Shown here: positions 2,237 to 44,022 of the stretch, one piece after another | How the letters are laid out: every line of letters starts with the position of its first letter | How positions within the stretch are numbered: position 1 is the stretch's first letter | Source: Chloroflexota bacterium | GTDB lineage: Bacteria; Chloroflexota; UBA6077 | NCBI GenBank assembly: GCA_050942695.1 | Contig: JBMNNU010000001.1 | Coordinates: 1 to 44,022 of the forward strand | Reading direction: 5' to 3' | Length of the DNA: 44,022 nucleotides | The notes under the pieces: generated by a model | What the model was told of the DNA's origin: nothing | Database searches by the model: none | The model's input: only the letters and a program-made list of their open reading frames with translations | Program-made: the position numbers and the translations under genes

Positions 2237-3376
2237 GTGAAGCTCTCTTGCCTTCAGGAAAACCTAGATAAAGGACTCAACATAGTCAGCAAGGCCGTTC
2301 CGGCCAAAAGCACTCTTCCTGTCCTCGGCAACGTCCTGTTGTCAACCGATCAGGGTCGGTTAAAGCTGGCAGCCACTAATCTGGAGGTGGCCATAAGCTG
2401 CTGGATCGGGGCCAAGGTGGAGGAAGAGGGTTCAATTACCGTTCCCGCTAACCTCCTAACCGAATTCGTACGCTCCCTGCCCAACGATCGAATCGATCTA
2501 TCTCTGTCTCCGCGCACCAAGACGGTGAACCTGCGCTGCGCCCGTTTCGATGCCAATATCAGGGGGATCGATGCAGAGGAGTTCCCCACCCTGCCCAGTG
2601 CAGGCGATGGGTTCAAGATACTGGTGGATGGCGTGACACTCTCTGAAAGCATCTCCCAGGTGGTCTTCGCTGCCGCATCCGACGACAGCAGGCCGGTGCT
2701 AACTGGGGTACTGGTCACCTTCAAAGAAGACAAAATGACCATGGTGGCGGCCGACGGTTTCCGCATGGCTGTCAAAACGACACCTCTGGGCTCCGCAGTG
2801 GAGCAGGAGATCAGCGTCATCGTACCTGCCAGAGCCCTGCGAGAGTTAGGGCGGATCGTGTCCGACAGCGAGGAACAGATAGAGATCTCCGTCACTTCCA
2901 ACCGCAACCAGGCGCTCTTCCGTGCCGGGAACGTTGAGCTGGTCTCTCGGCTGATAGAGGGCCAGTTCCCCCCATATGAGCGGATCATCCCCCCGCCCAG
3001 CGAGAACAAGGTAGTGGTGAGCACAGGGGAGTTTCTGAACGCCAACCGCACAGCATCCATATTTGCCCGTGACAACTCCAACATCGTCCGGTTCCAGTTT
3101 ACCCCGGGGGAGGAGGGTCTCACGGCGGGCAAGATGATCATCACCGCCACCAGCGCCGAGGTGGGCGACAACGTGGGCGAGATCGACGCAGCCATCGTCG
3201 GACAGCCACCCCAGATAGCTTTCAACAGCCGCTACCTGGATGAGCTTTTGAGGGTGTTGGAGAAGAGTTCCCAGTTGGCGCTGGATATGAACTCTTCATC
3301 TAGCCCTGGGGTGTTCCGACCTGTGGGCGACGAGGGCTACCTGCACATCATTATGCCCATGCATACGAACAGGTAG
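2237..3376 (+). CDS. dnaN: DNA polymerase III beta subunit (sliding clamp)
   Basis: The 2165..3376 ORF reads VKLSCLQENLDKGLNIVSKAV..., with LPVLGNVLL and a C-terminal MPM motif typical of DnaN. I prefer the in-frame GTG at 2237, preceded by GGAAAGGGGG. The TTG at 2165 and ATG at 2216 are alternatives. Confidence 0.92.
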   Translation: MKLSCLQENLDKGLNIVSKAVPAKSTLPVLGNVLLSTDQGRLKLAATNLEVAISCWIGAKVEEEGSITVPANLLTEFVRSLPNDRIDLSLSPRTKTVNLRCARFDANIRGIDAEEFPTLPSAGDGFKILVDGVTLSESISQVVFAAASDDSRPVLTGVLVTFKEDKMTMVAADGFRMAVKTTPLGSAVEQEISVIVPARALRELGRIVSDSEEQIEISVTSNRNQALFRAGNVELVSRLIEGQFPPYERIIPPPSENKVVVSTGEFLNANRTASIFARDNSNIVRFQFTPGEEGLTAGKMIITATSAEVGDNVGEIDAAIVGQPPQIAFNSRYLDELLRVLEKSSQLALDMNSSSSPGVFRPVGDEGYLHIIMPMHTNR

Positions 3377-4737
3377 TGCATCTACAACAGTTGTCCCTCG
3401 CCAATTTCCGCAGCTACAGGCAGCTCGAACTCGAGTTGCCCTACCCCATTGTTCTGCTACAGGGCAACAACGGACAGGGAAAGAGCAACCTGCTGGAGGC
3501 TATCTATTTCCTAGCTACTACCCGGTCCCTACGGGCAGGATCCGATAGAGAGCTGATCAACTGGGAAGCCTTGGAAGAGCCCATCCCCTTTGCGCGCGTT
3601 GCCGGAACCGTTAAAAAGACCAGAGGCGACCTGAGGGTGGAGATAGCCATCCGCGCCGACCGGCCGGAACGAGCTGGCGCAGCCCTAGGGGAATCCGGCG
3701 GTACCCCGTTGGGGCTATCCAAGCGGATCAAGATCAACGGCGTAGCGAAGCGAGCGCTGGACCTCCTGGGGCAGATCAATGTAGTGATGTTCTCTCCACA
3801 GGACCTGGAACTGATCACCGGCTCCCCTTCCATCCGTCGCCGCTATCTCGATATCGTCAACTGCCAGGTAGACCGTCGCTACTGCCGGGCTTTGCAGCAG
3901 TACAACCGGGTGCTCCACCAGCGAAACCACCTTTTGAAGCAGATACGCGATGGCAAACAGCCCATTGAGACGCTGGAGTTCTGGAGCGAGGAGTTGGTGA
4001 AGAGTGGGGCTTACCTGCTTTGGCGACGGCTGGAGACAGTAGCGGCGCTAAACGGCTGGCTAGAGAGCTACTTCCACCGACTGACGAGAACGGGGAAGCG
4101 GCTGAAGATGGCCTATCGGTCTACAGTGGATGAGGCTGTGGGAGGCGCGGAGACGCGGGGACACAGGGACGGACCCCACCCCCTGCCCCTCCCCCACAGG
4201 GAGAGGGGAGATGAACTGGCTCTCACTGAGGGAGAGCGTGAACGTGCCAGAGGACACGTTCACGGGGGTGAGGGGGAACTAGCTCAGGACTCAGGACTCA
4301 GGACTCAGGACCCGCAACTCACCGAGACGGCCGAGCTGTTCAGGGAGGCTTTGCGCCGCTACCGCAGGCGAGAAACGCTCCAGGGGGTATCTCTATTGGG
4401 GCCCCACCGGGATGACCTAGTCTTCCGCGCAGATGGTATCGACATGAACGTCTACGGTTCTCGCGGCGAGCAGAGGGCGGTGGCGTTGGCGCTCAAGCTG
4501 TCGGAGGTGGAGTTCCTGCAAGAAGCCACTGGAGAATGGCCTCTCCTGCTGCTAGACGACGTGATGTCGGAGCTCGATCCCTCCCGCAGACTGCTGCTGC
4601 TGGAGACCATCGGCTCGTCGGGGCAAACCCTGATCACCACCACAGAGCTGGAGTCATTCTCACCGAAGTTCCTGGCTAGCGCTGCGCTTTTCGAAATCCA
4701 TCAGGGCACGGTGGTGCTAACGCGCAAACCTGCATAG
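3376..4737 (+). CDS. recF: DNA replication/repair protein RecF, carrying an ~57-codon low-complexity insertion
   Basis: N-terminus MHLQQLSLANFRSYRQLEL..GNNGQGKSNLLEAIYFL (Walker A), later GPHRDDL and LLLLDDVMSELD (Walker B). The GTG start shares one nucleotide with the dnaN stop (TAGTG). It is 453 aa, whereas RecF is usually about 360-370 aa. Confidence 0.9.
   Translation: MHLQQLSLANFRSYRQLELELPYPIVLLQGNNGQGKSNLLEAIYFLATTRSLRAGSDRELINWEALEEPIPFARVAGTVKKTRGDLRVEIAIRADRPERAGAALGESGGTPLGLSKRIKINGVAKRALDLLGQINVVMFSPQDLELITGSPSIRRRYLDIVNCQVDRRYCRALQQYNRVLHQRNHLLKQIRDGKQPIETLEFWSEELVKSGAYLLWRRLETVAALNGWLESYFHRLTRTGKRLKMAYRSTVDEAVGGAETRGHRDGPHPLPLPHRERGDELALTEGERERARGHVHGGEGELAQDSGLRTQDPQLTETAELFREALRRYRRRETLQGVSLLGPHRDDLVFRADGIDMNVYGSRGEQRAVALALKLSEVEFLQEATGEWPLLLLDDVMSELDPSRRLLLLETIGSSGQTLITTTELESFSPKFLASAALFEIHQGTVVLTRKPA
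4141..4311 (+). repeat. Composite repeat inside recF: CGGAGAC-like heptamers, 42-nt GC-hairpin core, 9-bp perfect hairpin, (CTCAGGA)x4
   Basis: Core 4171-4212 is ggaccccaccccctgcccctcccccacagggagaggggagat. Hairpin is gtgaacgtg(4238-4246)/cacgttcac(4255-4263). Four exact tandem CTCAGGA copies lie at 4283-4310. A 72-nt stretch matches the reverse complement of 29188-29259 at 66/72. Confidence 0.85.
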
Positions 4738-12713: not shown

Positions 12714-13895
12714 ATGAGGAAGGTAACCCATCTACGCGCCATAGCGATACTATCGACCCTATCTCTAGTAGTATGCCTCGCGGCCGCCTGTGGAAGTACT
12801 GCCCCTGCCCCTGCCGCGACGGCTGCGCAGCCAGCCGCGTCCACCGCTGCCGCTCCCAAAGCGGCTGAGCCGACTAAAGCCTCCGCTGCAGCTCCAACAG
12901 CCGCGACCAAAGCCGAGCCAACTAAGGCTGCCGCTCCCGCCCAGCTCACCAAGCTGCGGGTGGGGTGGGCCATAGCACCCCATATGTCTCTGCAGGGCTT
13001 GGCGTTGCAAAAAGGTTGGTTTAAGGAAGCGGGGTTGGATGTAGAGTTAACAGCGTTCGACACCGGCGCCCCGTTGTTCGAGGCGATGGCCGCGGGTAAG
13101 CTGGACATGGGCATAACCGGTAGCACACCCACCATCAGTACAGCCGCCGCTCAGGCGCCGGCCATCTACTTCGTCGGCTCCCACGGCGAGTCCACCGACG
13201 TGTTCACTGTCGTCTCCCGCAAAAGCATAGAGAAACCGGCCGACGTGAAGGGCAAGACGGGGATTACAGCCAAGGGTTCGGTAAACCACTATTTCCTCGA
13301 TCTTATGCTCGAGAAGTACGGCATGACGGAGAAGGACATCACCCTGATCCATATGGAGATGGCCGACGCCGTGACGGCTTTCGTAGCAAACCAGGGCGAC
13401 TTCGCATCCATCGGCACGGCCTTCTGGCCGCAGATCCTGGACAAATCTGATGATGCTAAGATCCTCTTCACAGGGAAGGATCTTGGTAGCTCGGATGGCA
13501 AGGCGCTGAAGACAAAGATGGTCGAAGTGACCACCGCATCAAAGACATTTGCCGATCAGAATCCAGAGGCTGTGACCAAATTCGTAGACGTTCTGTACAA
13601 CCGCACTCACAAATACTTCAACGATCCGGCCACTAAACAGACAGCTCACCAGGAGCTGCAGGCCTGGCTGAAGACTGCAGTCAACTTCAACGGCACACTC
13701 GAAGAGCTGAGCGCGATGCTCAACCCGGTGAAATACTACACCTGCTCCGAGCAGATCAAGCTGTTCGAGGACGGAACGTTCAAGGCCAGTATCGACGCAC
13801 AGGCTCAGTACCTACTGGATACCAACAAACTGAAGAGCGCGTTCACCTTCGAATCGTACGCCAAGCCTGATTTCGTCAAGGCAGCGGCCAAGTAA
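12714..13895 (+). CDS. ABC transporter substrate-binding lipoprotein, NMT1/THI5-like (SsuA/TauA/ThiY) family, paralog 1
   Basis: Lipobox-like LSLVVCLAAACGS, then an Ala/Pro/Thr tether, then LRVGW..AP...LALQKGWFKEAGLDVEL..FDTGAPLFEAMAAGKLDMG. RBS AAAGGAG. Confidence 0.82.
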   Translation: MRKVTHLRAIAILSTLSLVVCLAAACGSTAPAPAATAAQPAASTAAAPKAAEPTKASAAAPTAATKAEPTKAAAPAQLTKLRVGWAIAPHMSLQGLALQKGWFKEAGLDVELTAFDTGAPLFEAMAAGKLDMGITGSTPTISTAAAQAPAIYFVGSHGESTDVFTVVSRKSIEKPADVKGKTGITAKGSVNHYFLDLMLEKYGMTEKDITLIHMEMADAVTAFVANQGDFASIGTAFWPQILDKSDDAKILFTGKDLGSSDGKALKTKMVEVTTASKTFADQNPEAVTKFVDVLYNRTHKYFNDPATKQTAHQELQAWLKTAVNFNGTLEELSAMLNPVKYYTCSEQIKLFEDGTFKASIDAQAQYLLDTNKLKSAFTFESYAKPDFVKAAAK

Positions 13896-14008: not shown

Positions 14009-15193
14009 ATGAGAACGTTCGGCAGCCGAATGGGAGTCACATTACTGGTCTCTCTGTTAGCGATGAGCCTGTTAGTAGCCTGCGGACCCGCCCCTGCTCC
14101 AGCGCCGACGACCAAGCCTGCGGCAGCGCCAACTACTGCTCCCGCCGCTCCAAAAGCTGCCGAGCCGACTAAAGCCTCCGCTGCAGCTCCAACAGCCGCG
14201 GCCAAAGCCGAGCCGGCAAAAGAAGCTTCCCCGGCTCAACTAACCAAGGTGCGTGTGGGTTGGACGGTGGCTCCCCACCAGGCGTTGGCGGGGGTAGCCC
14301 TGAAGAAGGGTTGGTTCAAGGAGGCAGGGCTGGATGTCGAATTAATCGCCTTCGATACGGGCGCCCCTCTGTTCGAGGCTATGGGAGCGGGAAAGCTTGA
14401 TATGGGGATGAGTGGCAGCACGCCGCCCATCAGCGTGGCTGCGGCTGGGGCTGTGCCTCTCTATCTCGTAGGTACACACGCCGAGTCCACAGAGCTGTTC
14501 ACTATGATCTCGAGAAAGGACATCAAGGACATTACGGAACTGAAGGGGAAAACCGGTATAACAGCTAAGGGCTCGGTGAACCACTATTTCCTGGCAGTGG
14601 TGCTGGAAAAGGTTGGTCTCACGGAAAAGGATATCACCCTGATCCACATGGAGCAGGTGGATGCCGTGACGGCCTTCATAGCTAACCAGGGCGACTTTGC
14701 ATCTCTTGGCACCGCCTTCTTCCCGCAGATCCTGGAAAAATCCGATAACACCAAGATCCTAATCACCGGCAAGGATCTGCCCAACCCACCGGGCAAGCCC
14801 CTCAAGACCAAGCTGATGGAGTTGCACACCGTTCACAAACCCTTTGCCGATGAGAATCCCGACGCTGTCACCAAATACATAGACGTGCTGTACAACCGTA
14901 CCCACGCCTACTTCAACGACGAATCGACAAAGGCGACGGCGCGCCAGGAATTAGCCGATTGGCTAAAGACTACCGTCAACATCAACCAATCCGTCGAAGA
15001 GCTAAGTGAGATGCTAGAACCGGCCAACTACTACTCTGCGGAAGAGCAGCTAAAGATGTTCCAGGACGACACCTTCAAGGTGAGCATCGATACCCAGGTC
15101 AACTATCTTGTAGACACCAATAGGATCAAGAACCGCCTTGAATTCGCGTCCTGGGCCAATCCCAAATTCGTGGAGGCCGCGTCTAAAAAGTAG
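14009..15193 (+). CDS. ABC transporter substrate-binding lipoprotein, NMT1/THI5-like family, paralog 2 (tandem duplicate)
   Basis: It has the same architecture and length as 12714-13895 and is roughly two-thirds identical by eye. The lipobox is LLVACGP. The tether peptide AAPKAAEPTKASAAAPTAA.KAEP is shared, as is the 5' UTR motif tagtcgaaa..aaggag. Confidence 0.82.
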   Translation: MRTFGSRMGVTLLVSLLAMSLLVACGPAPAPAPTTKPAAAPTTAPAAPKAAEPTKASAAAPTAAAKAEPAKEASPAQLTKVRVGWTVAPHQALAGVALKKGWFKEAGLDVELIAFDTGAPLFEAMGAGKLDMGMSGSTPPISVAAAGAVPLYLVGTHAESTELFTMISRKDIKDITELKGKTGITAKGSVNHYFLAVVLEKVGLTEKDITLIHMEQVDAVTAFIANQGDFASLGTAFFPQILEKSDNTKILITGKDLPNPPGKPLKTKLMELHTVHKPFADENPDAVTKYIDVLYNRTHAYFNDESTKATARQELADWLKTTVNINQSVEELSEMLEPANYYSAEEQLKMFQDDTFKVSIDTQVNYLVDTNRIKNRLEFASWANPKFVEAASKK

Positions 15194-15204
15194 GTAATCG
15201 AGAG

Positions 15205-15247
15205 TGTAGCGCTACAATCCCCCCTTCCCTCCCTTTGGGAAGGGGGG
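15205..15247 (+). repeat. Two adjacent stem-loops after the second binding-protein gene (12-bp palindrome plus 11-bp GC hairpin)
   Basis: tgtagcgctaca at 15205-15216 is a perfect palindrome. cccccttccc-type arm 15219-15229 pairs with gggaagggggg 15237-15247 across a 7-nt loop. No T-run follows, so it is not a classical terminator. Confidence 0.55.
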
Positions 15248-15280
15248 AAGATGTTACCTTTACCCTGAGGGAGGTTGCTC

Positions 15281-16960
15281 ATGATAGGCGCTGATCTAGT
15301 GGCCCACGCCCTCAAAGCCCACGGGGTCACCTTTATCTCTGCCCTGGTAGGCAACGGGATCAACCCGGTGCTTTTCTCGGCTCGCCAGGCTGGAATCAAG
15401 GTTGTGGATACCCGCAACGAGCAGACGGCATCCTTTATGGCGGAGAGTTACGGCCGCTTCACCTGCCGAGTAGGTGTCTGCGCCGTGAGCAGCGGCGGAG
15501 GCCATACCAACGCCCTATCCGGCCTGGTAAACGCCCATCTGGGCAACGCCCCGATGCTACTGATCTCCGGCTGCAGCGATCACAATCTCACCGATCGTGG
15601 CAAGTTCCAGGACTTTGTCGACCAGGTGGCCATGGCTGCACCGGTAACCAAGTACGCCCGGTTGGTGGATCGGCCCGAGAAGATCCCCTTCTATATCCAC
15701 GAGGCCCTGGCTCACTCTGTAGCCGGCACTCCCGGCCCTGTACATCTCACCATCCCGGAGGATGTGCTGGATGCCGATGTATCGAATGACTTGATCACAC
15801 CAATCTCTGCTGCCACTAACGCTATAGTGGAGCAGCGATGTGTTGGCGATTCAAGATTGATCGAGGAGGCCGCTTCAGCAATAGCAGCAGCAGAGCGTCC
15901 ATTGATGGTTGCCGGCAATGGGGTCTTCTACGCCCACGGCGAGGATGCTCTGGCTGAGTTTGCTGCGATCGCAGATATCCCCGTAGTCGTGCCCATTTGG
16001 GATAGGGGATCCATTCCCAATCCCATTCCTCAATTCATGGGGGTTATCGGCTCAGCATCCGGCAGCCCAGATATCCTGCAGGATGCCGACCTGGTCCTGA
16101 TCCTTGGAGCGCAGGTAGACTACCGGCTCGGCTTCCTCCAGCCACCAGCCGTGCGAGCCGATGCGAAGGTGATCCGGGTCGACATCGACCCCCTACGGCT
16201 ACGCCAGGCGACCGATCCGCACATCGCGATCCTTGGCGACCCCAGGTCGGTTCTTGAGCAGTTGTCAGCCCGACTCCAGGGGGTATCCATGCCCGCACAC
16301 GCAGATTGGTTGGAGGAGGCGCGAAACCGAGACATGGACTTCCGAGAGCGATGGAGGGGATCGGCTATCAGGTGGGATGCCCCTGCCAACGGTTTGGCGT
16401 TAGTGGAGGCTATACGGCCGTTCGTACAGGGAGACGCCATCTTTCTGGTAGACGGCGGCAACATCGGCCAATGGATGCACATGGTGCTCTGCGACCGCTA
16501 CCCCGGGCACTGGATGACCTGTGGCGCCAGCGGCGTTGTGGGGTATGGCCTTGGAGCGGCAATGGCTGCCAGGATCGCTTACCCTTCCCGACCCGTCATC
16601 CTGCTTTCGGGTGACGGGTCGATGGGTTTCAACATAGCCGATCTCGAAAGCGCAGTCCGGCAGAAGCTGCCCTTCGTCGCAGTGGTGGCCGACGATCGTG
16701 CCTGGGGGATCACGGTCTCGAACCAGTTGGTCCAATACGGTAGTGAGAACATGGTAGGTTGCACTTTGGGCGCCATTCGCTTCGACCTCGCAGCCGAAGC
16801 CTTCGGTGCAATCGGGGTTCGAGTGGAGAACCCGCGAGAGATAGGAGCTGCCATCGAGCGAGCGCTGGCAGCGGACCGGCCGACGTTGATCCAGGTGCCG
16901 GTGCTCCATGGCGGTCCGGCGGATTCCCAGACCCTGTCGGCCAGTGTCGAATGCTGCTGA
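15281..16960 (+). CDS. Thiamine-pyrophosphate-dependent enzyme (acetolactate synthase / oxalyl-CoA decarboxylase-like superfamily), specificity unknown
   Basis: The N-terminal Pyr domain has ...DTRNEQTASFMAESYGR...GGGHTNALSGLVNA. The C-terminal TPP-binding region has LLSGDGSMGFNIADLE...VVADDRAWG. ATG at 15281 follows GGGAGG. Confidence 0.82.
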   Translation: MIGADLVAHALKAHGVTFISALVGNGINPVLFSARQAGIKVVDTRNEQTASFMAESYGRFTCRVGVCAVSSGGGHTNALSGLVNAHLGNAPMLLISGCSDHNLTDRGKFQDFVDQVAMAAPVTKYARLVDRPEKIPFYIHEALAHSVAGTPGPVHLTIPEDVLDADVSNDLITPISAATNAIVEQRCVGDSRLIEEAASAIAAAERPLMVAGNGVFYAHGEDALAEFAAIADIPVVVPIWDRGSIPNPIPQFMGVIGSASGSPDILQDADLVLILGAQVDYRLGFLQPPAVRADAKVIRVDIDPLRLRQATDPHIAILGDPRSVLEQLSARLQGVSMPAHADWLEEARNRDMDFRERWRGSAIRWDAPANGLALVEAIRPFVQGDAIFLVDGGNIGQWMHMVLCDRYPGHWMTCGASGVVGYGLGAAMAARIAYPSRPVILLSGDGSMGFNIADLESAVRQKLPFVAVVADDRAWGITVSNQLVQYGSENMVGCTLGAIRFDLAAEAFGAIGVRVENPREIGAAIERALAADRPTLIQVPVLHGGPADSQTLSASVECC

Positions 16961-25612: not shown

Positions 25613-27466
25613 TTACTTCTTTTCGACCTTATCGCCGTCGCGGAGCTCGTTCTGGCCAGCCACAACAACCTCTTCGCCTGCCACTACCCCGCTTACCAAC
25701 TCCACGCTCCCGTTCTGCGAAAGCCCTAGCTCCACTTCCCTCATCTCCACTACATCACCATTCACAACATACACAACCGAACGCCCATCCCTCACTAATA
25801 CCGCTTCCTTAGGTACCAACAGCGCTCTCTCCTTCTCACCTGTCACTATCTTCACCTGCGCAAACATTCCAGGCCTAAGCTTACCTCCATCTATCTCCGG
25901 CCTCACCTTCACCTGAAATGTCCGCGTCCTCGCATCCGCTGTCGGTGATACCTTCGCTACCTTCGCTAATATCTGCTCCCCCGGATACGCCGCCGTCTCT
26001 ATCTCAGCCCTCTGACCTTCCTCTATCTGCCCTATCTGGCTCTCCTCTACTCCAAGGGCTATCTCTACCCCTTCGCTCACTATCGTCACTATCGGAGTCG
26101 CCGGACTCACCAACGCCCCTATCTCCCCATGCTTCTCCGCAACCACTCCGTCTATCGGACTCCTTACTTCACTCTCCTTAAGCGCTAGCTCCGCCAACTC
26201 CAGCGCAGCCCTCGCCTGCTCTACCGATGCCCTACCCTGCGCCAAATCCTCATCCAAATACGGCTTCACTGCCATCTGGTACGCTTGGCTCGCCTGCGCT
26301 ACCGCTGCCTCCGCCTGACGCTTCTCCTCTTCTGTCGCACCTTCCTCAAGAGCCTTCAGCCGAGCCTCCGCTCCCACCAACACCGCCTCCGCTGTCTTCA
26401 CCGCCGACTCCGCCTGCTGAATATCCTCCTCTGTTGCCCCTCGCTGCAACTGCTCCAGCCTCGCCTTCGAACTCTCATAGTTAGCCAACGCGGTGTACAA
26501 CGCTGTCTCCGCCGCCTGCAACTCGTGAGGATACGGCCTACCCTTCAGATAGTTCAGCCTCGCCACCGCACTGTCCAACGCCGTCTGCGCCGCCTGCCTC
26601 CCAGTCTCTGCCTGGCTCGCACTCGTCGCTCCACTCATCCTCTTCTCTGCGTCAGTGCTCTCACCCTTCCAAATCTGTACCTGGTCGTTCGCTGCATCAA
26701 GCGCCGCCCTCGCCTGCTCTACCGCCTGCTGCGCCGCCCACAGCTCATGGTCCTTAGGCCCTGCCTTTAGATCATCTAGGTTCGCCTGCGCTGCCTTGAT
26801 CGCAAGCTCACTCTGGTCCACCGCTGCCTTCGCCGCTGCTAGCTCCGCCTGCGTTGCCCCTTTCTTCACACGCTCATACGCAGCCTGCGCGTTCGCTAAC
26901 CCTGCTCTAGCCTGCTCTACCGCACTCTGTGCCGCCGCTAGATCACTCTCCCTAGCCCCCTTCACCACCGCATCTCGCCTGGCTTGCGCCTGCTCCAACG
27001 CCGCTGCAGCCTGCCCTACCTGCTCCGACCTCGGCCCCCTCTCCATGCTCGCATACCGAGCCTCCGCTGCCGCTAACGCCGCTCTCGCCTGCGCTACCTG
27101 CGCCTGCAGACTCTCGGCATCCAGCTTCGCAAGCACATCTCCCTTCTTTACTCGACTCCCTACCTCTACTAGTATCTCCTCTATCCGACCACTACCCTTC
27201 GGCACCACAGCTACCTGAGTGACTGCCTTCACATCCCCACTGTAGCTAAGGTGACTCGCTATCGACCCCTCCGCCACAGGCGCTACCTTGATCGCTATCG
27301 CAGTTGCCCCCTGAGGAGTAGCTTCCCCGGGGTTTTCATCTTTCGACATTGCGGCGATGCTCAGCGGCACTGCTAACAGTAGCAGCGCCACCACCGCCAA
27401 CGCTGCCAACACTGACACCCTTCTCCCCATTGCCTGTTTTCCTATATTCAACAGTTGCGATCTCAC
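25613..27466 (-). CDS. Efflux periplasmic adaptor (HlyD/membrane-fusion protein) with a greatly extended Ala-rich coiled coil, 617 aa
   Basis: N-terminal membrane anchor, lipoyl-like half KKGDVLAKLD ... SPIDGVV, and about 330 aa of repeating G-x-x-x-E...AA.AAV.QA.AAL modules. The C-terminal beta-barrel region reads VRDGRSVVYVVNGDVVEMREVELG. GTG at 27466; ATG at 27430 is the alternative. Confidence 0.85.
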   Translation of the reverse strand: MRSQLLNIGKQAMGRRVSVLAALAVVALLLLAVPLSIAAMSKDENPGEATPQGATAIAIKVAPVAEGSIASHLSYSGDVKAVTQVAVVPKGSGRIEEILVEVGSRVKKGDVLAKLDAESLQAQVAQARAALAAAEARYASMERGPRSEQVGQAAAALEQAQARRDAVVKGARESDLAAAQSAVEQARAGLANAQAAYERVKKGATQAELAAAKAAVDQSELAIKAAQANLDDLKAGPKDHELWAAQQAVEQARAALDAANDQVQIWKGESTDAEKRMSGATSASQAETGRQAAQTALDSAVARLNYLKGRPYPHELQAAETALYTALANYESSKARLEQLQRGATEEDIQQAESAVKTAEAVLVGAEARLKALEEGATEEEKRQAEAAVAQASQAYQMAVKPYLDEDLAQGRASVEQARAALELAELALKESEVRSPIDGVVAEKHGEIGALVSPATPIVTIVSEGVEIALGVEESQIGQIEEGQRAEIETAAYPGEQILAKVAKVSPTADARTRTFQVKVRPEIDGGKLRPGMFAQVKIVTGEKERALLVPKEAVLVRDGRSVVYVVNGDVVEMREVELGLSQNGSVELVSGVVAGEEVVVAGQNELRDGDKVEKK

Positions 27467-27501: not shown

Positions 27502-30500
27502 CTATATTCTTGCTTCCTCACCTACTTTTACCCCAGTAGGCTCTACAGTCTTCGGCGTGCGCCGAAGACGCCGCCGGATCCATCCTCCGGTATCGTCTAT
27601 CAGCGAGTAGGCAACCGGCACCACTATCAGCGTCAGGATAGTGGATGTGATCACACCACCCACTACGGTCACGCCCATCGGTTGACGCAGCTCCGACCCC
27701 GCTCCAAATCCCACGGCTACGGGCATCATGCCGAAGATCATTGCAAATGTAGTCATCAGGATGGGTCGCAACCGTATCGGCCCTGCCTGCAGGATCGCAT
27801 CACGGGTGCTCATACCCCGCCTTTTTAGCTGGTTTATGAACTCGACCAGCAGGATGGAGTTCTTTGTCACGAGCCCCATCAGCAACAGCATCCCGATCAT
27901 CGCCATTGCGTCGAGGCTAATCCTACTTATCAGCAGCGCAAGCAGCGCCCCGATGATCGAGAATGGCAGCGCAAGCATGATGGTGAAGGGGTGCACAAGG
28001 CTCCCGAACTGAGAGGCCAGGATCATGTACATGAACAGCACCGATAGCACCAGGGCCAATGACAGAGAGCCGAAAGCCTCATCCATGTACTCAGTATCGC
28101 CACCGATCTTGACCATTACCCCCTCAGGCAACTGCATCGCGGCCACGGCCTCCTGGGCTTCCGCCAAGATCGGGCCGATGTCGTTACCCTGGTAGTTGGC
28201 CCCCACGATCACCTGCCGCATCCGGTTCTCCCGCTCGATCTGATGGGGCTCCGATGAGGGCGCCAGGCTGGCGACCGCCGAAAGAGGCATCAAGCTGCCC
28301 CTAGTGGAAGCAATGGGCAGCTTAAGGATGTTCTCTGCATGGTAGCGGTCCTCTTCGGCCAGCCGGACCATAATGTCCATGTCCTCTTCTTCTGCCATAT
28401 AGCTACCGGCCTGCTCACCGTTGACCAGTGTTCTTATGGTGGTGCCCACCTGCGCCGTGGACACTCCCAGGTCGGTCGCTCGGGCGCGGTTGAGAACGAT
28501 GATGCGGCCCGGCCGGCCGGGCCGGATGGAGCGATCGATATCCACGACACCCGACACCTTCGACAGGCGCTCCATCACTTCGATCGATACCTTGTCCAGT
28601 TGGTCGATGTCGTTGCCCTGCACCTTAAACTGGATTGGTTGGCTCATCAGAGCGGTCATGGCCGAACCAAGAGCACCCGCCGCCGCGGTCTCCTTGTTGA
28701 AGGTAACCTTGGTGCCGATCAGTTTGCCGTTCAACGCATCTCGCACTTTAGTAATCATCTGGTCGGTATGTCCCCGAGACTTGAGGATGACGCCCACCGA
28801 GGCGGAGTTGACCGCCTGTCCCGAAGAGCCAACAGTGGTGAAAATGTGGCTCACCATCGGATCGTTCCTCAGCAGCTCCTCCACCGTCCGAGCTACCTCG
28901 TCGGACTCCTCGAGCCGAGCCCCCGGTCTAAGCTCCATCATTACGGAAAACTCGCCCTGGTCTACCGCCTGCATGAATGCCTGATTCATCAGTGGGACCA
29001 TGGCCAGGCTGCCCAGCAAGGACAGGACACCCACCCCCACCACCACCTTCCTGTGGCTGAGAGACCAGCTTAGGAATCCACGGTAGATGGTGTAGATGGT
29101 GCCGAGTGTAGAGTGCTGAGTGCTGAGTCCTGCATCCTGTTTTGAGTGCTGTTCTGAGTGCTGGGTTCTGGGTTCTGGGTTCTGGGTATCTCCCCTCTCC
29201 CTGTGGGGGAGGGGTAGGGGGTGGGGTCCGTCTCCGCGTCTCCGTGTCTCCGCGCCTCCTGTTGCCTGTTGCCTACTACCCACTGCCTTCTTCTTGAATA
29301 AGTAGGCGGACAGCATCGGGGCGAGGGTGAAGGCCTCCACCAACGAGATCAACACTGCCGTAGCTATGGTGACGCCGAAATCTCGGAGGTAGACCCCCAT
29401 CATCCCGCCGGTGAAGGCGATAGGCAGGAAGACGGCTACGATAGTGGATGTGACCGCTAGTACTGCCAGCGCTATCTCCGCCGTCCCCCTTCCGGCCGCT
29501 ACTTTGGGCTCCTCCCCCCGCTCCATGTGTCGGAATATGTTCTCCCGGACCACGATGGCGTCGTCGATCAGCATGCCGATAGACATGGAGAGGGCCATCA
29601 TGGAGATCATGTTGAGCGAGATCCCCAGGGCGTGTAGCACAGCGAAGGTGCCCAGCACCACCACCGGCAGCCCTGCGATGGTAACCAAGGTGTTGCGCAG
29701 GTCGCGGAAGAACAGCAGCACCACGAGTGCCGCCAGGAGGCCGCCTAGCAGCAAAGCGGTCTGGACGTCACGTAACGCATCTCGGGTGAAGGTCGAACCG
29801 TCGTAGACGAAGCCAAAATTCAGATCAGGATACTCGCCCTGCAGCTTCGCCATCTCGGCTTTGGCAGATTCGGCCACCTTCACGGTGTTGGAGCCCGATT
29901 GCTTGTATAGCACTGCCACTACACTATCCTGGCCGTCCAAACGGGTAAGATGACGCACATCGGCGTGGCCTTTGGAAATAGAGGCTAACTCCTTCAGCTT
30001 GACCGTGCTCCCCTGTAGGGTGGGCACCGGGATTTCTCCAAGCTCTTCCAGAGACGTTACCTGGCCGGCTGTTCTCAGAAGCTCCTCGTTGCCGGCCTCG
30101 TAAATCCGGCCGGCTGGCAGGTCCAGGTTCTCGCCCCGAATCGCCTGAATCACCTGTTGTGGAGACACAGTGAACGCTTGAAGCTGAGCCAGAGACAGCT
30201 CGACGTGGACCTCCTTCACCAGTCCACCGTAGATCTCCACGAGGGCTATTCCATCCAGCCGTTCCATCCTCGTCTTGACCACGTCGTCTGCCAGGGTACG
30301 CAACTGCTCCCCATTCAAGCGGCCTGTCTTGTCAGATATGGCGAAAACACCGATGGGAAGGGCTGTCATGTCCATCTTCCCGATGACCGGCTCCTGGATG
30401 TCGGCTGGCAGGCTGTTGCGGATCAGGCCTATCCGGTCCCGAACATCGTCGGCCGCCGCATCGCCATCCATGTCCATGTCAAATTCCACAATCACCGTGG

Positions 30501-30855
30501 ATACACTGTCTGATGAGGTGGATCGGATCTTTTCCACCCCGTTCAGCGAGGCCATGGCATCCTCGATCGGCTTGGTCACCGACCGTTCGATCGTCTTGGG
30601 GTCCGCGCCCGGATACACCGTGCTCACCGCCACGATGGGCAAGGTAGTATCAGGCATCAGGTCTACGGCCATTCGACTGTATGACAGCCAACCAACCAAT
30701 ATGACAGCCGCCACCATCATCATTATGAAGACAGGCTGGCGGATGGAGAGGTCAGAAAGCCACATCTTCTGTGGGCCTTTGCTTAGGTTATCGTGAAGAT
30801 GGTCCAGGGCGGAGACGTCGTCGATTCCGTCGTTCCCCGGATCATTATCAGCCAT
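27502..30855 (-). CDS. RND-family efflux transporter permease (AcrB/AcrD/AcrF-like) carrying an in-frame repeat-derived insertion in the central loop
   Basis: LSIRQPVFIMMMVAAVIL.., 12-TM architecture with two large loops, 1117 aa. Strong RBS AAGGAGG before the ATG at 30855. Confidence 0.92.
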   Translation of the reverse strand: MADNDPGNDGIDDVSALDHLHDNLSKGPQKMWLSDLSIRQPVFIMMMVAAVILVGWLSYSRMAVDLMPDTTLPIVAVSTVYPGADPKTIERSVTKPIEDAMASLNGVEKIRSTSSDSVSTVIVEFDMDMDGDAAADDVRDRIGLIRNSLPADIQEPVIGKMDMTALPIGVFAISDKTGRLNGEQLRTLADDVVKTRMERLDGIALVEIYGGLVKEVHVELSLAQLQAFTVSPQQVIQAIRGENLDLPAGRIYEAGNEELLRTAGQVTSLEELGEIPVPTLQGSTVKLKELASISKGHADVRHLTRLDGQDSVVAVLYKQSGSNTVKVAESAKAEMAKLQGEYPDLNFGFVYDGSTFTRDALRDVQTALLLGGLLAALVVLLFFRDLRNTLVTIAGLPVVVLGTFAVLHALGISLNMISMMALSMSIGMLIDDAIVVRENIFRHMERGEEPKVAAGRGTAEIALAVLAVTSTIVAVFLPIAFTGGMMGVYLRDFGVTIATAVLISLVEAFTLAPMLSAYLFKKKAVGSRQQATGGAETRRRGDGPHPLPLPHRERGDTQNPEPRTQHSEQHSKQDAGLSTQHSTLGTIYTIYRGFLSWSLSHRKVVVGVGVLSLLGSLAMVPLMNQAFMQAVDQGEFSVMMELRPGARLEESDEVARTVEELLRNDPMVSHIFTTVGSSGQAVNSASVGVILKSRGHTDQMITKVRDALNGKLIGTKVTFNKETAAAGALGSAMTALMSQPIQFKVQGNDIDQLDKVSIEVMERLSKVSGVVDIDRSIRPGRPGRIIVLNRARATDLGVSTAQVGTTIRTLVNGEQAGSYMAEEEDMDIMVRLAEEDRYHAENILKLPIASTRGSLMPLSAVASLAPSSEPHQIERENRMRQVIVGANYQGNDIGPILAEAQEAVAAMQLPEGVMVKIGGDTEYMDEAFGSLSLALVLSVLFMYMILASQFGSLVHPFTIMLALPFSIIGALLALLISRISLDAMAMIGMLLLMGLVTKNSILLVEFINQLKRRGMSTRDAILQAGPIRLRPILMTTFAMIFGMMPVAVGFGAGSELRQPMGVTVVGGVITSTILTLIVVPVAYSLIDDTGGWIRRRLRRTPKTVEPTGVKVGEEARI
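29104..29273 (-). repeat. Composite repeat inside the RND gene: 12 heptamer-phase units, 42-nt GC-hairpin core, GTCTCCN heptamers, (TGTTGCC)x2
   Basis: 29104-29187 reads in 7-nt phase (gagtgct x2, tctgggt x3, etc). Core 29188-29229 matches the reverse complement of recF 4171-4212 at 41/42. 29230-29259 continues the match. tgttgcc x2 lies at 29260-29273. Confidence 0.85.
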
Positions 30856-37807: not shown

Positions 37808-37847
37808 CCTCGTCCTCCCGACACAAAGCTGTCTGCTTTTTTTAGCA

Positions 37848-38169
37848 ATCAGCTTTCAGCAGTCAGCTATCAGCTTTCTCTATCAAAACAGGCGATTATG
37901 CATCCTCTACTATCTTAATAACACATTGCCAATTATCAACGCCCCTAGTTTCAGCTTTTTACCTATCCTGACATCTGGAACCTTCAAACCTTCATCCTGT
38001 CATTCTAAGCCCCTACGCTGTCATTCTGGGTGTCGAGCGAGGAATCTCCACGATCCCTCCCTACCTACATGGAGATGCTTCATTCCGTTCAGCATGACAC
38101 CTCGCCACTCGCTTTTCGCTACTCGCTCTCTCGCCCTGAAGGCTGAAAGCTGACGGCTGATAGCTAAAA
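37848..38169. repeat. MITE-like nest of repeats bounded by inverted TCAGC-heptamer arrays
   Basis: Left array is atcagct ttcagca gtcagct atcagct (37848-37875). Right array is gctgaaa gctgacg gctgata gctaaaa (38142-38169), its inverted counterpart. Inside are an AT-rich segment, an imperfect ~79-nt palindrome (38020-38098) and an ACTCGCT-type heptamer array (38107-38134). Confidence 0.7.
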
Positions 38170-41833: not shown

Positions 41834-42817
41834 TCAATCCCGTTTGGGTGATGAGCTCAAGCTCATGAACGCGTCCTCCATAGTTGGGGCGATCGGCCGG
41901 AGCGAGAGCAGCTCTATCCCCTCCCTCTCCAGCACCTCCCTGGTCGCCCGCTCGGCCGCTGGAGCGTCCGAGGTGACCAGGTGCAGCGTGTCGCCGAAAA
42001 CTCGCACGTCTTCCAGCAGCGGCACCGATTGGAGCGCCGCCTTGGCTGCCCGCCTCGGCTCGGCCCGCAGCTCCAGCACATCCTTACCCATCTGCTCCTT
42101 CAGCCGCTGGGGTGTATCGCTCACCACCACTTTTCCCTCAGCCATGAAGCCCACGCTGTTGCACCGCTCGGCCTCGTCCATGTAGGGGGTGCTGACCAGG
42201 ATCGTTACCCCCTGGCCCAGCAGGCTGTACAGTATCCGCCAGAACTCCCGCCGGGATACCGGGTCCACCCCCGTCGTCGGCTCGTCCAGCAGCAGCAGCT
42301 CGGGATCGTGGATCAGGGTGCAGGCCAGGGCCAGCTTCTGCTTCATCCCCCCAGAGAGGAACTCTGCCAGCCTGTCGACGAACGGCTCCAATCGACTGAA
42401 GGCCAGCAGCCTCCGCGAGCGCTCCTCTCTCGCCTGCCGGGGTACCCGGAAGAGGTCGGCGTAGAAAAGCAGGTTCTCCATCACCGTAAGGTCCCCATAG
42501 AGGGAGAAGCGCTGGGACATGTAGCCGATCTTCTCCCGGACCTTCTCCACCTCCGCCACGGCGTCGTAGCCCAACACCCGGACTCGGCCCCCGTCGGGCG
42601 ACAGCACCCCGCACAGCATCCGCAGGGTGGTGGTCTTACCAGCTCCGTCCGGCCCCACCAGGCCGTAGATCTCGCCCCTCTTCACCCGCAGGTCGAGCCC
42701 GCGAACGGCGCGCACCTCGCCGAAGCTCTTGGCGAGCCCAACCGCCTCCACTGCCGGGGTGGTGGGGTCCGTCCTCGTACCCCTAGCAGGATTTATGGTG
42801 TCCCCGGACATACTCAC
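41834..42817 (-). CDS. ABC transporter ATP-binding protein (ABC-2/YbhF-like drug-export type)
   Basis: VGLAKSFGEVRAVRGLDLRVKRGEIYGLVGPDGAGKTTTLRML, signature LSGGMKQKLALA, Walker B LLLLDEPTTGVDP. Confidence 0.9.
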   Translation of the reverse strand: MSMSGDTINPARGTRTDPTTPAVEAVGLAKSFGEVRAVRGLDLRVKRGEIYGLVGPDGAGKTTTLRMLCGVLSPDGGRVRVLGYDAVAEVEKVREKIGYMSQRFSLYGDLTVMENLLFYADLFRVPRQAREERSRRLLAFSRLEPFVDRLAEFLSGGMKQKLALACTLIHDPELLLLDEPTTGVDPVSRREFWRILYSLLGQGVTILVSTPYMDEAERCNSVGFMAEGKVVVSDTPQRLKEQMGKDVLELRAEPRRAAKAALQSVPLLEDVRVFGDTLHLVTSDAPAAERATREVLEREGIELLSLRPIAPTMEDAFMSLSSSPKRD

Positions 42818-42826
42818 TCCCTCTTG

Positions 42827-43957
42827 TCACTCGAGCTTCTTCTGGAAGCGCTTGGCGCTCAGCCCGAAGATGATGGTCGCAAAAACCGTCAACAACAGCA
42901 CCTCGAACCAGAGGTACTCCATACCGATGCCCTTGAGGGCTATGCCCCTCAATATCTTCAGAAAGTAGGTCAAGGGGATCAGATACCCCATGTAGTCCAG
43001 GATTGCCGGCATCGACTCCCTGGGAAACATGAACCCCGACAGCAGTATTGAAGGCAGGATCACCAGCACGGACATCTGGAGCGCCTCGGTCTGAGTCTTA
43101 GACACCGTGGAGATCAGCAGGCCGATCCCCAACGACCCCACCAGAAACACCACGGAGAGGACCAGCAGGAGGAGCAAACTCCCGGCGATCTCCACCTTGA
43201 ACCAGAGGGTGCCCACTGCGAGAGCCACGGAAACCTGGGCGAAGGCAATCAATACGTAGGGTGCAATCTTGCCAACCATTAGCTCCCAAGGCTTAATCGG
43301 GGTGACGATCAACTGCTCCAGGGTGCCCTTCTCACGCTCCCTGACGATGGCGAAGGCCGTGAGGATGACGGCCTGCATCTGCAGGATCAGGCCGATCAGC
43401 CCGGGGATCATGAAGTTCACGCTCTGCATGCTGGGGTTGTACAGGATGTTGGGCCGGATCTCGATGGGCATCTCGACGGATCTGCTGATGCCAGTCCGGG
43501 CTAAGCTGGCCTGTACCTCCGAGGCCGCCCGGGACTGCGCTATGCTGGTCGCGGTGAATAGCGCAGTGCTTGCCACGTTGGGATCGGAGCCGTCGATGAT
43601 CGCCTGGACGTAGGCCGGCTTTCCTGAGTCCAGGTTGCGGGAGAAGTCGGGCGGAATGATGAAAGCCACTTTGGCATCCCCACGGTCGATGGCATCCCGG
43701 GCCTCGTCGTGGCTGGAGACGTTTCCAACCACCGTGAAATACTCCGTGTTCGTGAAGGCGCGAAGAAAATCCCGGCTCCGCCCGTCCATCGCCTGGTTGA
43801 ACACCACCGTGGCGATATGGTCCACGTTCGTGGTGACGGCGTAGCCGAACAGCAGCAGTTGCAGGGCCGGCACCACCAGGATGATGGCCAGGCTGCGTGG
43901 GTCTCGCTTTACCTGGATGAACTCTTTTCGGATTATCGAGAGGATACGAGTGTTCAT
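42827..43957 (-). CDS. ABC-2-type transporter permease (YbhS/YbhR-like)
   Basis: MNTRILSIIRKEFIQVKRDPRSLAIILVVPALQLLLFGYA, a large extracytoplasmic loop, then 5 further TM segments. Confidence 0.88.
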   Translation of the reverse strand: MNTRILSIIRKEFIQVKRDPRSLAIILVVPALQLLLFGYAVTTNVDHIATVVFNQAMDGRSRDFLRAFTNTEYFTVVGNVSSHDEARDAIDRGDAKVAFIIPPDFSRNLDSGKPAYVQAIIDGSDPNVASTALFTATSIAQSRAASEVQASLARTGISRSVEMPIEIRPNILYNPSMQSVNFMIPGLIGLILQMQAVILTAFAIVREREKGTLEQLIVTPIKPWELMVGKIAPYVLIAFAQVSVALAVGTLWFKVEIAGSLLLLLVLSVVFLVGSLGIGLLISTVSKTQTEALQMSVLVILPSILLSGFMFPRESMPAILDYMGYLIPLTYFLKILRGIALKGIGMEYLWFEVLLLTVFATIIFGLSAKRFQKKLE

Positions 43958-43968
43958 ACGTTACCTCA

Positions 43969-44022
43969 GGTTCTGAGTGCTGGGTTCTGAGTTCTGGGAA
44001 TTCTTTTCTCAGAACTCAGAAC
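43969..44022. repeat. Inverted heptamer arrays (GGTTCTG/AGTGCTG family), truncated by the window edge
   Basis: ggttctg agtgctg ggttctg agttctg (43969-43996), an 11-13 nt loop, then (ct)cagaac tcagaac (44008/44010-44022), the inverted counterpart. The heptamers are the same as in the RND insertion. Confidence 0.7.

Follow-up and report, generated by a model that had tools for sequence, protein, structure and literature searches.

The window analysed here, 44,022 bp long and a contig from a metagenome-assembled genome (MAG) of the Chloroflexota, carries a recF gene in which a 171-nt block of repetitive DNA is translated in frame. This block is not RecF sequence and adds ca. 51 predicted disordered residues in a surface loop of the protein. 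We think it likely that the block is a translated repeat mosaic that came to lie in a permissive loop by way of the motifs of DUF559 mini-elements, slippage of short tandem arrays and selection for the reading frame. More broadly, as a proposal that we hold tentatively and place just short of an even call, the BoxC/PIT/TMECO repeats, whose kind of motif forms the core of the block, would be the terminal inverted repeats, and derivatives thereof, of pan-bacterial DUF559 mini-elements of ca. 450 bp that colonise genes in frame.

A translated repeat block in recF

The host gene, which dnaN immediately precedes, is matched by the RecF profile TIGR00611 in two stretches (E=1.6e-90; best stretch aa 3-254), and the related RecF model NF010680 picks up again at aa 301-431. 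The PDB RecF structure 5z67 matches the protein with E=3.6e-48, and solved RecF structures align with aa 1-64, 114-236 and 339-424, i.e., on both sides of the insert. At NCBI, a MAG protein is on record with 100% identity to this RecF. The list of open reading frames (ORFs) and the translation reproduce exactly the 453 aa and the excess peptide quoted in an earlier note made from the same DNA, which had set them against a usual RecF length of 360-370 aa (the textbook value is ca. 360 aa). The excess block is real, but it adds ca. 51 rather than ca. 90 residues, since RecF of this clade is ca. 400 aa long even without insert: the orthologs P0004 (402 aa) and P0010 (408 aa), at 63-71% identity, lack the block. 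Its 171 nt comprise four modules, namely an array of octamers, a core of 36 nt that forms a hairpin, a further hairpin module and a fourfold CTCAGGA run, which are detailed here together with the host gene (TRF, Tandem Repeats Finder):

3376..4737, plus strand: recF coding sequence, host of the insertion, 453 aa (ORF list and translation)
4141..4311, plus strand: whole composite recF insert, aa ~256-312; absent from L004/P0004, with other content in L001, L002, L098, L099 and L100
4141..4212, plus strand: 72-nt unit (octamers and core) common to recF and an RND gene, 66/72 identical with sharp boundaries
4141..4170, plus strand: module a, array of the 8-nt unit GGAGRCRC in ~3.7 copies, read as GGAETRGHRD (TRF, period 8)
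4171-4212: module b, 42-nt core with the stem CCCCTCCCCC/ACA/GGGAGAGGGG (from the sequence)
4173..4208, minus strand: triplex-motif core of 36 nt, BoxC/PIT/TMECO-like (own three-block detector; nhmmer E=1e-11)
4213..4282, plus strand: module c, second module of 70 nt, CTCTCAC-TGA-GGGAGAG ... GGGGGTGAGGGGG (from the sequence)
4283..4311, plus strand: module d, tandem CTCAGGA heptamers x4.1, read as (A)QDSGLRTQD (TRF, 100% identity)

The octamers of module a also occur in the second window copy of the unit, which lies in a gene for a resistance-nodulation-division (RND) permease, as well as in the recF gene of locus L098 and the RND gene of locus L182; the earlier note had called them CGGAGAC-type heptamers, which TRF corrects to a period of 8 (GGAGACGC). 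Its remaining structural observations are borne out by the sequence: the GC stem of the core is 10 bp long with one mismatch and a 3-nt loop, the hairpin at 4238-4263 (GTGAACGTG-CCAGAGGA-CACGTTCAC) has a perfect 9-bp stem, and the CTCAGGA copies are exact. Module c may be an oppositely oriented, degenerate triplex motif with this 9-bp hairpin nested in it; no second copy of the hairpin was found in any of the retrieved DNA, and it is a guess that it represents a nested insertion within the degenerate motif. The CTCAGGA run is shared with the recF linker of locus L001. In 100 shuffles, the expectation was zero both for the heptamer run at 4283-4311 and for the 42-nt core, which the window contains in two copies with at most one mismatch.

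The same unit in an RND pump gene

The second copy of the core lies, as the earlier note had seen, in an unrelated gene, which we identify as an RND/AcrB-family permease and in which the unit is again in frame. Positions 4141-4212 and the reverse complement of 29188-29259 are 92% identical, and the match ends sharply on both sides. The features concerned are the following:

27502..30855, minus strand: RND/AcrB-family permease of 1117 aa, host of the second copy (Pfam ACR_tran, E=3e-253)
29099..29274, minus strand: whole composite insert in the RND gene, with the translation ...GGAETRRRGDGPHPLPLPHRERGDTQNPEPRTQHSEQHS... (TRF and translation)
29192..29227, plus strand: second triplex-motif core, CCCCTCTCCC-TGT-GGGGGAGGGG-TA-GGGGGTGGGG (nhmmer, three-block detector, shuffles)

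Along the plus strand, the RND insert consists of heptamer arrays (29099-29187), the core, octamers (29229-29259) and further heptamers (29258-29274). Both genes have the C-rich strand of the core as their sense strand and read the 72-nt unit in the same frame (GGAETR..GDGPHPLPLPHRERGD) before continuing into heptamer-encoded peptides. The permease is covered by ACR_tran in two stretches, of which the best (aa 34-526) corresponds to profile positions 2-496, while TIGR00914 picks up again at aa 589-1086. The insert thus sits at the break of ACR_tran at profile position 496, which, going by AcrB, is the cytoplasmic linker between transmembrane helices 6 and 7 (TM6-TM7). Most relatives of this pump are without any insert, and its closest relative (73% identity), recovered from the JGI sample that also yielded L002, contains the GGAGACGC octamers and lacks the core. 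Neither nhmmer nor the three-block detector found further copies of the core in the window.

Variation of the recF linker and its predicted structure

Among 28 close relatives of the window RecF (homologs with at least 61% identity), protein lengths range from 385 to 473 aa, and in the alignment these differences gather in a single linker between 'YRSSVEEA' and 'QAELFREALRRYRRR'. The linker spans 20-90 aa in the close relatives vs. 10-32 aa in a set of 12 distant Chloroflexota RecFs. Motif-derived peptides were found in the linkers of 5, heptamer-derived ones in 7 and octamer-derived ones in 3 of the 28 close relatives and in none of the 12 distant orthologs. At the DNA level, we compared the linker at six orthologous loci (with identity to the window RecF):

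L004 (71%): empty linker, 402 aa protein
L001 (80%): 1.5 octamers and several heptamer arrays including the CTCAGGA run; core absent
L002 (73%), a contig of MAG UBA6077: three oppositely oriented cores (SPLPVGEGPGVGS...)
L098 (63%): octamers (four), a GC hairpin led by GTAG, and heptamers
L099 (64%): a GTAG-led hairpin and a perfect 21-bp palindrome, CCCTCACCCTGACCCTCTCCC/AGC/GGGAGAGGGTCAGGGTGAGGG
L100 (65%): heptamers only

Because relatives keep arrays without a core, the simple-repeat arrays appear to be older at the recF and RND sites, with cores coming and going. Two assemblies of one lineage from two samples, L002 and L003, are 99.96% identical and show no informative indel. The hairpins of L098 (5853-5878) and L099 (10790-10815), GTAGGGGCCGGC...GCCGGCCC, resemble repetitive extragenic palindromic (REP) elements and represent a second, unrelated kind of small palindrome that lies in frame at the recF linker site.

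An AlphaFold2 model of the window RecF built on the alignment is confident overall (predicted local distance difference test, pLDDT, 84.8; predicted template modelling score 0.82; 293 residues with pLDDT of at least 90). The insert (aa 256-311) has a pLDDT of ~45 vs. >90 for most of the remaining protein and is modelled as a loop, so that it is predicted to occupy a disordered, hypervariable loop of an otherwise confident RecF fold. A second low-confidence loop at aa 99-111 (window 3670-3708, PERAGAALGESGGTP, pLDDT <50) is common to the whole clade and explains part of its ca. 400 aa compared to ca. 360 aa in textbook RecF.

These comparisons bear on three other explanations of the block. One is that the insert has been selected as a functional extension that RecF of this lineage needs, for instance a disordered linker or a tail for interactions, and that its repetitive DNA is incidental; this would agree with its being in frame every time and with the longer linker of the close relatives (28/28; median 39.5 vs. 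21 aa in the distant Chloroflexota RecFs). We nonetheless regard it as very improbable, given that the sequence, length and even strand of the repeats differ between relatives at 70-80% identity, that P0004 and P0010 do essentially without an insert, that the peptide composition is set by the DNA repeats and that the RND pump contains the 72-nt unit in the identical frame. The 7- and 8-nt arrays could also make recF a slippage-prone contingency locus, where a change by one of the four perfect CTCAGGA units would put the gene out of frame and thus toggle RecF off or on. Array lengths do vary among relatives, and the introduction of PMC4666352 mentions links of such repeats to phase variation. 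Yet every recovered recF allele is in frame with no frameshifted allele in the homolog list, four units make a short array, and the same arrays also occur in intergenic DNA and are therefore not gene-specific devices, so that we give this explanation barely any credence. Finally, the window is a MAG contig, and short repeats can mislead assemblers into repeat-induced chimeras or collapsed repeats. An artefact of this kind seems extremely unlikely to us, as the recF sequence is collinear on both flanks of the block with the frame kept, comparable inserts occupy the same codon position in independent assemblies from other samples, and the RND copy is in frame, too.

The central claim of the earlier note, an in-frame insertion of repetitive DNA, therefore holds, based on the 72 nt in an unrelated gene, the absence of the block from P0004 and P0010 and the different mosaics at the same site in other relatives. 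Its statement that recF is "interrupted" is right about the insertion and too strong about its effect: we see no sign of an inactivated RecF, and the insert is probably neutral and leaves the function of the protein unaffected.

The core as a triplex motif

On its G-rich strand, the core is composed of a C block, a G block that is its reverse complement except for one T.G mismatch and, mirroring this G block, a third block in which T stands opposite A; the three-block detector recognises both window copies by this design. In recF, the G-rich strand is the minus strand and the C-rich strand is the sense strand. Judged by this architecture, the core is a G/C-rich class II intrastrand triplex motif of the BoxC/PIT/TMECO kind that is not related to the Rickettsia palindromic elements (RPEs) to which the earlier note had likened it. 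The motif was first noticed in Escherichia coli as BoxC and later described again under the name of PIT elements; TMECO is the name given by Holder et al. (2015, PMC4666352). Descriptions of BoxC date from the 1990s and work on the motif by the Maher lab from 2000 (PMC4666352). Both the E. coli and the window motifs have three blocks (C, reverse-complement G and mirror G) with short loops and are nearly identical in sequence, CCCTCTCCC-TGT-GGGAGAGGG-CCG-GGGTGAGGG in E. coli vs. CCCCTCTCCC-TGT-GGGGGAGGGG-CA-GGGGGTGGGG in recF, and the E. coli list includes CCCTCTCCCTGTGGGAGAGGGCCGGGGTGAGGGC, to which CCCCTCTCCCTGTGGGGGAGGGGCAGGGGGTGGGG is the counterpart in the window. They are also alike in being widespread, in their local sequence variability and in occurring singly or as inverted pairs, and perhaps in being multi-copy.

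The strict TMECO pattern, CCCTCNCCC N3-6 GGGNGAGGG N3 GGGNGAGGG, has no match in the window, whereas a relaxed pattern (second loop of 1-6 nt, A/T allowed in block 3) matches both copies. The differences comprise blocks of 10 instead of 9 nt, GTGGG instead of GAGGG in the third block (GGGGGTGGGG) and a second loop of 2 nt, and we therefore place the window copies in the wider G/C-rich class II motif class and not in TMECO in the strict sense. The setting differs as well: all 23 TMECO copies of E. coli K-12 are intergenic (PMC4666352), while both window copies lie in frame inside coding sequences. Strain 55989 has 29 copies and IHE3034 a single one (Holder et al., PMC4666352). Salmonella is reported to be without TMECO. 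The surroundings of TMECO are unusually variable between strains, and tests for promoter or terminator activity found none (PMC4666352). The same paper gives counts of the strict pattern for 262 proteobacterial genomes and points to further G/C-rich triplex motifs in cyanobacteria and Thermus (PMC4666352).

Unlike these counts in proteobacteria, our host is a Chloroflexota MAG, and a survey of one genome per bacterial species with a degenerate core pattern, in which the pattern fixes the blocks and leaves the loops free, gave copies in at least six phyla among the matches listed (Planctomycetota, Chloroflexota, Pseudomonadota, Cyanobacteriota, Peribacteria and Bacteroidota). The Pseudomonadota carriers among these matches include Gallionellales, Pseudomonas and Thiomargarita, and loop sequences vary between the copies listed. 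As to copy number, we saw two in the 44-kb window and matches on at least three contigs of the related MAG UBA6077. Rfam returned nothing credible, either for the whole window at the gathering threshold or for 4000-4450 in E-value mode, and a BLAST comparison of the block with plasmids gave three weak partial matches only.

Tolerance in frame and copies in other genes

All six frames of the 72-nt unit of octamers and core are free of stop codons, and the whole 171-nt block is open solely in the frame used by recF. The genic heptamers CTCAGGA, CCCAGAA and TCAGCAC are free of stops in all three phases in their coding orientation, and two of them (CTCAGGA and TCAGCAC) carry stops in reverse orientation. 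The insert is thus tolerated by virtue of a unit that is stop-free in six frames, of heptamers in their stop-free orientation and of a site in a loop that spans 20-90 aa in close relatives. The RNA fold of the block shows three hairpins enclosed by an outer C/G stem, with a modest gain over shuffled sequences (z = -1.96), and ViennaRNA predicts a hairpin alone for the core.

In the retrieved loci, 58 of 97 motif copies sit in frames with 60 or more open codons on each side. Some of these frames will be spurious due to high G+C, and nine of the longest were therefore checked with Pfam. Seven of them are ordinary genes interrupted by the motif alone:

UvrA, Peribacteraceae: motif in frame
HrpA, Planctomycetota: motif in frame
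CobB/CobQ, UBA6077: motif in frame
aconitase, Anaerolineae: motif in frame
glutamate synthase, Anaerolineales: motif in frame
ResIII enzyme: motif in frame
RND permease, Planctomycetota: motif in frame at profile position 496, as in the window

The other two hold a whole DUF559 (PF04480) unit in frame, each as one continuous ORF with motifs on both sides:

L087:4545-5167, Anaerolineales MAG: DUF559 unit and flanking motifs in MetH, between the pterin-binding and B12-cap domains
L047:1988-2465, Thiobacillaceae MAG: DUF559 unit and flanking motifs in a DNA methylase-like ORF

Across the genes checked with Pfam, every one of the six reading frames of the motif is in use.

Association of the motif with DUF559 nuclease genes

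We scanned 80 metagenomic loci (L102-L181) with DUF559 relatives of the MetH and methylase units using the three-block detector and found a motif within 200 nt of the DUF559 gene in 68 of them. The 31.1 kb near the gene contain 137 motifs vs. 24 in the remaining 252.6 kb of these loci, a 46-fold difference in density (4.40 vs. 0.095 per kb; Poisson p ~3e-172). The nearest upstream motif is on the plus strand in 57 of 61 loci and the nearest downstream one on the minus strand in 43 of 50, with inverted motifs bracketing the gene in 37 of the 68 loci that have enough flank and forming units of 430-540 nt. The third block mirrors the hairpin perfectly in 71/135 cases vs. 14% with tails swapped, a contrast that is inflated by sequence relatedness. 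The triplex-motif class is thus tightly and directionally associated with one DUF559 subfamily, and its members are probably the ends, solo copies or internally deleted copies of DUF559 mini-elements. Our literature search found no paper connecting DUF559 or YcjD with BoxC, PIT or triplex motifs. Six cases were examined in finished genomes of several phyla, and in five of them the DUF559 gene has repeats of the triplex-motif type next to it:

Deinococcus proteolyticus and Synechocystis sp. B12: gene bracketed by inverted motifs that face the other way
Neisseria gonorrhoeae: degenerate motif upstream, motif pairs downstream
Azospirillum lipoferum: motif pair upstream, plain hairpin downstream
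Picosynechococcus PCC 7002: shorter versions with 5-6-nt blocks on both flanks
Sinorhizobium copy: no clear motif beside the gene

The DUF559 gene of E. coli K-12, ycjD (region examined: 1349000-1352500, L101), is located ~170 nt from TMECO no. 9 (1351204-1351239) beside fabI, and its last codons are motif-like themselves. Of 5426 complete E. coli genomes, 3378 contain ycjD and 4605 contain a given TMECO variant. The gene fills the fabI-sapF site where other phylogroups have the eefRABCD efflux operon, and this alternative together with its incomplete presence makes the ycjD locus polymorphic. It is kept in phylogroups A, B1 and C and absent in eef-carrying lineages, e.g., the B2 sequence types examined. 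Strain 55989 belongs to phylogroup B1 and IHE3034 to phylogroup B2. Among the inverted TMECO pairs of K-12, four of five are of the "plus, then minus" arrangement, with 17-28 nt between the motifs (Table 1, PMC4666352), which is what internal deletion of a DUF559 unit would leave.

These same pairs without a gene between them also suit a different account, in which the motifs spread by another route, e.g., one via RNA or replication slippage as has been put forward for small dispersed repeats of cyanobacteria, DUF559 is a homing-type gene that enters existing inverted pairs, and the recF insert owes it nothing. Homing genes are generally known to split their own recognition site, which would likewise result in inverted brackets, and the majority of motifs are distant from any DUF559 gene. 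Moreover, the Vsr/DUF559/DUF2726 clade of PD-(D/E)XK nucleases (clade 58) includes a group I intron homing endonuclease (PMC3424549). Against this speaks that the two brackets of one unit are reverse complements of each other, loops included, while block sequences differ between units, as would fit ends that travel with the gene; in addition, the flanks outside the brackets are unrelated between loci, and no other mobilising activity was identified. On balance, we consider the homing account unlikely and prefer to see the motifs as parts of DUF559 mini-elements.

Several observations weigh against this preference. The 80 loci represent one subfamily retrieved by two peptide patterns, and the inverted motifs of D. 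proteolyticus and Synechocystis sp. B12 face opposite to what is seen there. A tblastn search of the 44-kb window detected no DUF559 gene, so that its copies are solo motifs, of which there are just two, and a DUF559 gene is present in only 2 of ~93 motif-centred loci. We saw no target-site duplication and no matched pair of empty and filled sites for either the motif or the DUF559 unit, and mobility is therefore deduced from distribution. For E. coli, TMECO was reported to show no association with mobile elements (Holder et al., PMC4666352), and the TMECO oligonucleotide formed a triplex in vitro while a stable triplex was not seen in vivo (PMC4666352). We also considered that a Vsr-like nuclease might act on the T.G mismatch of the motif stem and dropped this idea, since many DUF559-flanking motifs have perfect stems or another mismatch.

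Proposed mechanism and its significance

We propose that mini-elements of ~450 bp would encode a DUF559 endonuclease (Vsr-like PD-(D/E)XK fold, YcjD type) and have triplex motifs as their ends. Cleavage and repair at these motifs would copy, delete and reshuffle them, the flanking 7- and 8-nt arrays would lengthen or shorten by slippage, and selection would retain only variants that preserve the reading frame. As the element ends have no stop in any frame, they, and at times the whole nuclease unit, would be able to colonise coding sequences in frame. The same process would have placed the 72-nt unit in the TM6-TM7 linker of the RND pump and would remodel surface loops of RecF, UvrA, MetH, HrpA and RND pumps across phyla.

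For the gene at hand, this means that an unusually long RecF is explained by an ordinary insertion of selfish repeats in a floppy loop that is probably harmless, and that aa 256-311 should be treated as non-RecF sequence in annotation and structure modelling. A repeat class that is intergenic in E. coli is found in frame in essential and housekeeping genes of at least four phyla and is therefore a recurrent source of loop insertions, an RPE-like phenomenon far beyond Rickettsia. The oriented association with DUF559 provides a first testable hypothesis for the origin and movement of BoxC/PIT/TMECO, which would also explain the unstable surroundings of these motifs and propose a role for ycjD of E. 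coli. Should the nuclease recognise the motif as folded DNA, be it a hairpin or a triplex, a structure-specific enzyme of this sort would be unusual for a mobile element.

Comparison with known systems

The block brings together a variant of a known repeat class, located in a coding region, and arrays similar to the short tandemly repeated repetitive (STRR) sequences of cyanobacteria. It differs from BoxC/PIT/TMECO in E. coli, for which no link to a nuclease gene has been reported. RPEs, reportedly described by Ogata et al. in 2000, are small palindromic repeats that lie in frame in unrelated housekeeping genes. Like our motif, they are found at protein surfaces, where they are tolerated, and have more than one reading frame in use; they differ in their size (~100-150 bp), in being known only from Rickettsia and in lacking the three-block triplex design. 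The resemblance pointed out in the earlier note is thus apt as an analogy of outcome, i.e., in-frame insertion, and fails as family membership: the host belongs to the Chloroflexota, a 36-nt core sits amid 7- and 8-mers, and we found neither a sequence relationship nor a match in Rfam or elsewhere.

Cyanobacterial STRRs are heptamer arrays (Mazel, 1990) in which small dispersed repeats (SDRs) are reportedly embedded (Elhai et al., 2008). Tandem heptamers at many loci, very small hairpin elements inside arrays and nested insertions are common to them and the repeats described here, and TRF finds head-to-tail 7-nt units at several loci of the window including intergenic DNA. The phylum and the unit sequences differ (compared to cyanobacterial STRR1-3), and SDRs are 21-27 nt long and not triplex motifs. 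Work on STRRs and SDRs is cited in PMC5861425.

The combination of structured short copies with few small nuclease or transposase genes that are bracketed by the same repeats is reminiscent of two other systems. REP elements with their REP-associated tyrosine transposases (RAYTs), and MITEs (miniature inverted-repeat transposable elements) with their parent insertion sequences (ISs), consist of many short non-autonomous copies and few enzyme genes. While RAYTs are HUH/Y1 enzymes and ISs mostly encode DDE enzymes, our motifs have as their candidate partner a Vsr-like PD-(D/E)XK nuclease of ~110 aa, and we know of no transposition chemistry of a DUF559-type nuclease. The window insert has no GTAG-type hairpin, which we found only in the L098 and L099 linkers, and no search for RAYT genes was made. 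A selfish homing role has a precedent in the clade of this nuclease, as I-Bth0305I is a homing endonuclease of the Vsr/DUF559 clade and similarly small; such homing enzymes reside in phage introns, whereas the DUF559 genes described here are free-standing or in frame in host genes and bracketed by motifs. An intein or self-splicing intron was rejected as an identity of the insert, which matches no Pfam intein and no Rfam family and comprises only 171 nt of simple repeats.

Other repeats of the window

TRF reports tandem heptamer arrays at 4283-4311, 29099-29187, 37840-37875, 38101-38165 and 43969-44022. Those at 37840-37875 and 38101-38165 (AGCWNTC; CTCGCYW; CTGAARG) are intergenic and lie at the two edges of an AT-rich spacer that separates two genes on the minus strand; STRR-like in character, they are related to heptamers within the L001 recF gene. 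The two heptamer arrays at 43969-44022, a short way upstream of where the minus-strand ORF 42827..43957 starts, are inverted (GTTCTGA.../...CTCAGAAC) and make up a long hairpin that continues beyond the contig end. An intergenic perfect 11-bp hairpin at 15217-15248, CCCCCCTTCCC-TCCCTTT-GGGAAGGGGGG, lies between the ORFs 14009..15193 and 15275..16960 and was scored as a weak triplex-type motif by the three-block detector; similar CCCTTCCC/GGGAAGGG hairpins flank motifs in L021, L032 and L065. Near the 5' end of the minus-strand ORF 41834..42817, 26 nt at 42758-42783 are 81% complementary to 4158-4183 (GGACCCCACC-type); both nhmmer and the three-block detector missed this match, which we take to be chance or a remnant and not a motif copy. 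A diverged family of 30-38-nt repeats (…CTCGCCTGCTCTACCG) has nine copies in 26189-27104 and 36350-37124 that may be coding repeats of two related proteins. The adjacent segments 12849-13739 and 14144-15034, 1295 nt apart and 71-75% identical, may be tandem paralogous genes.

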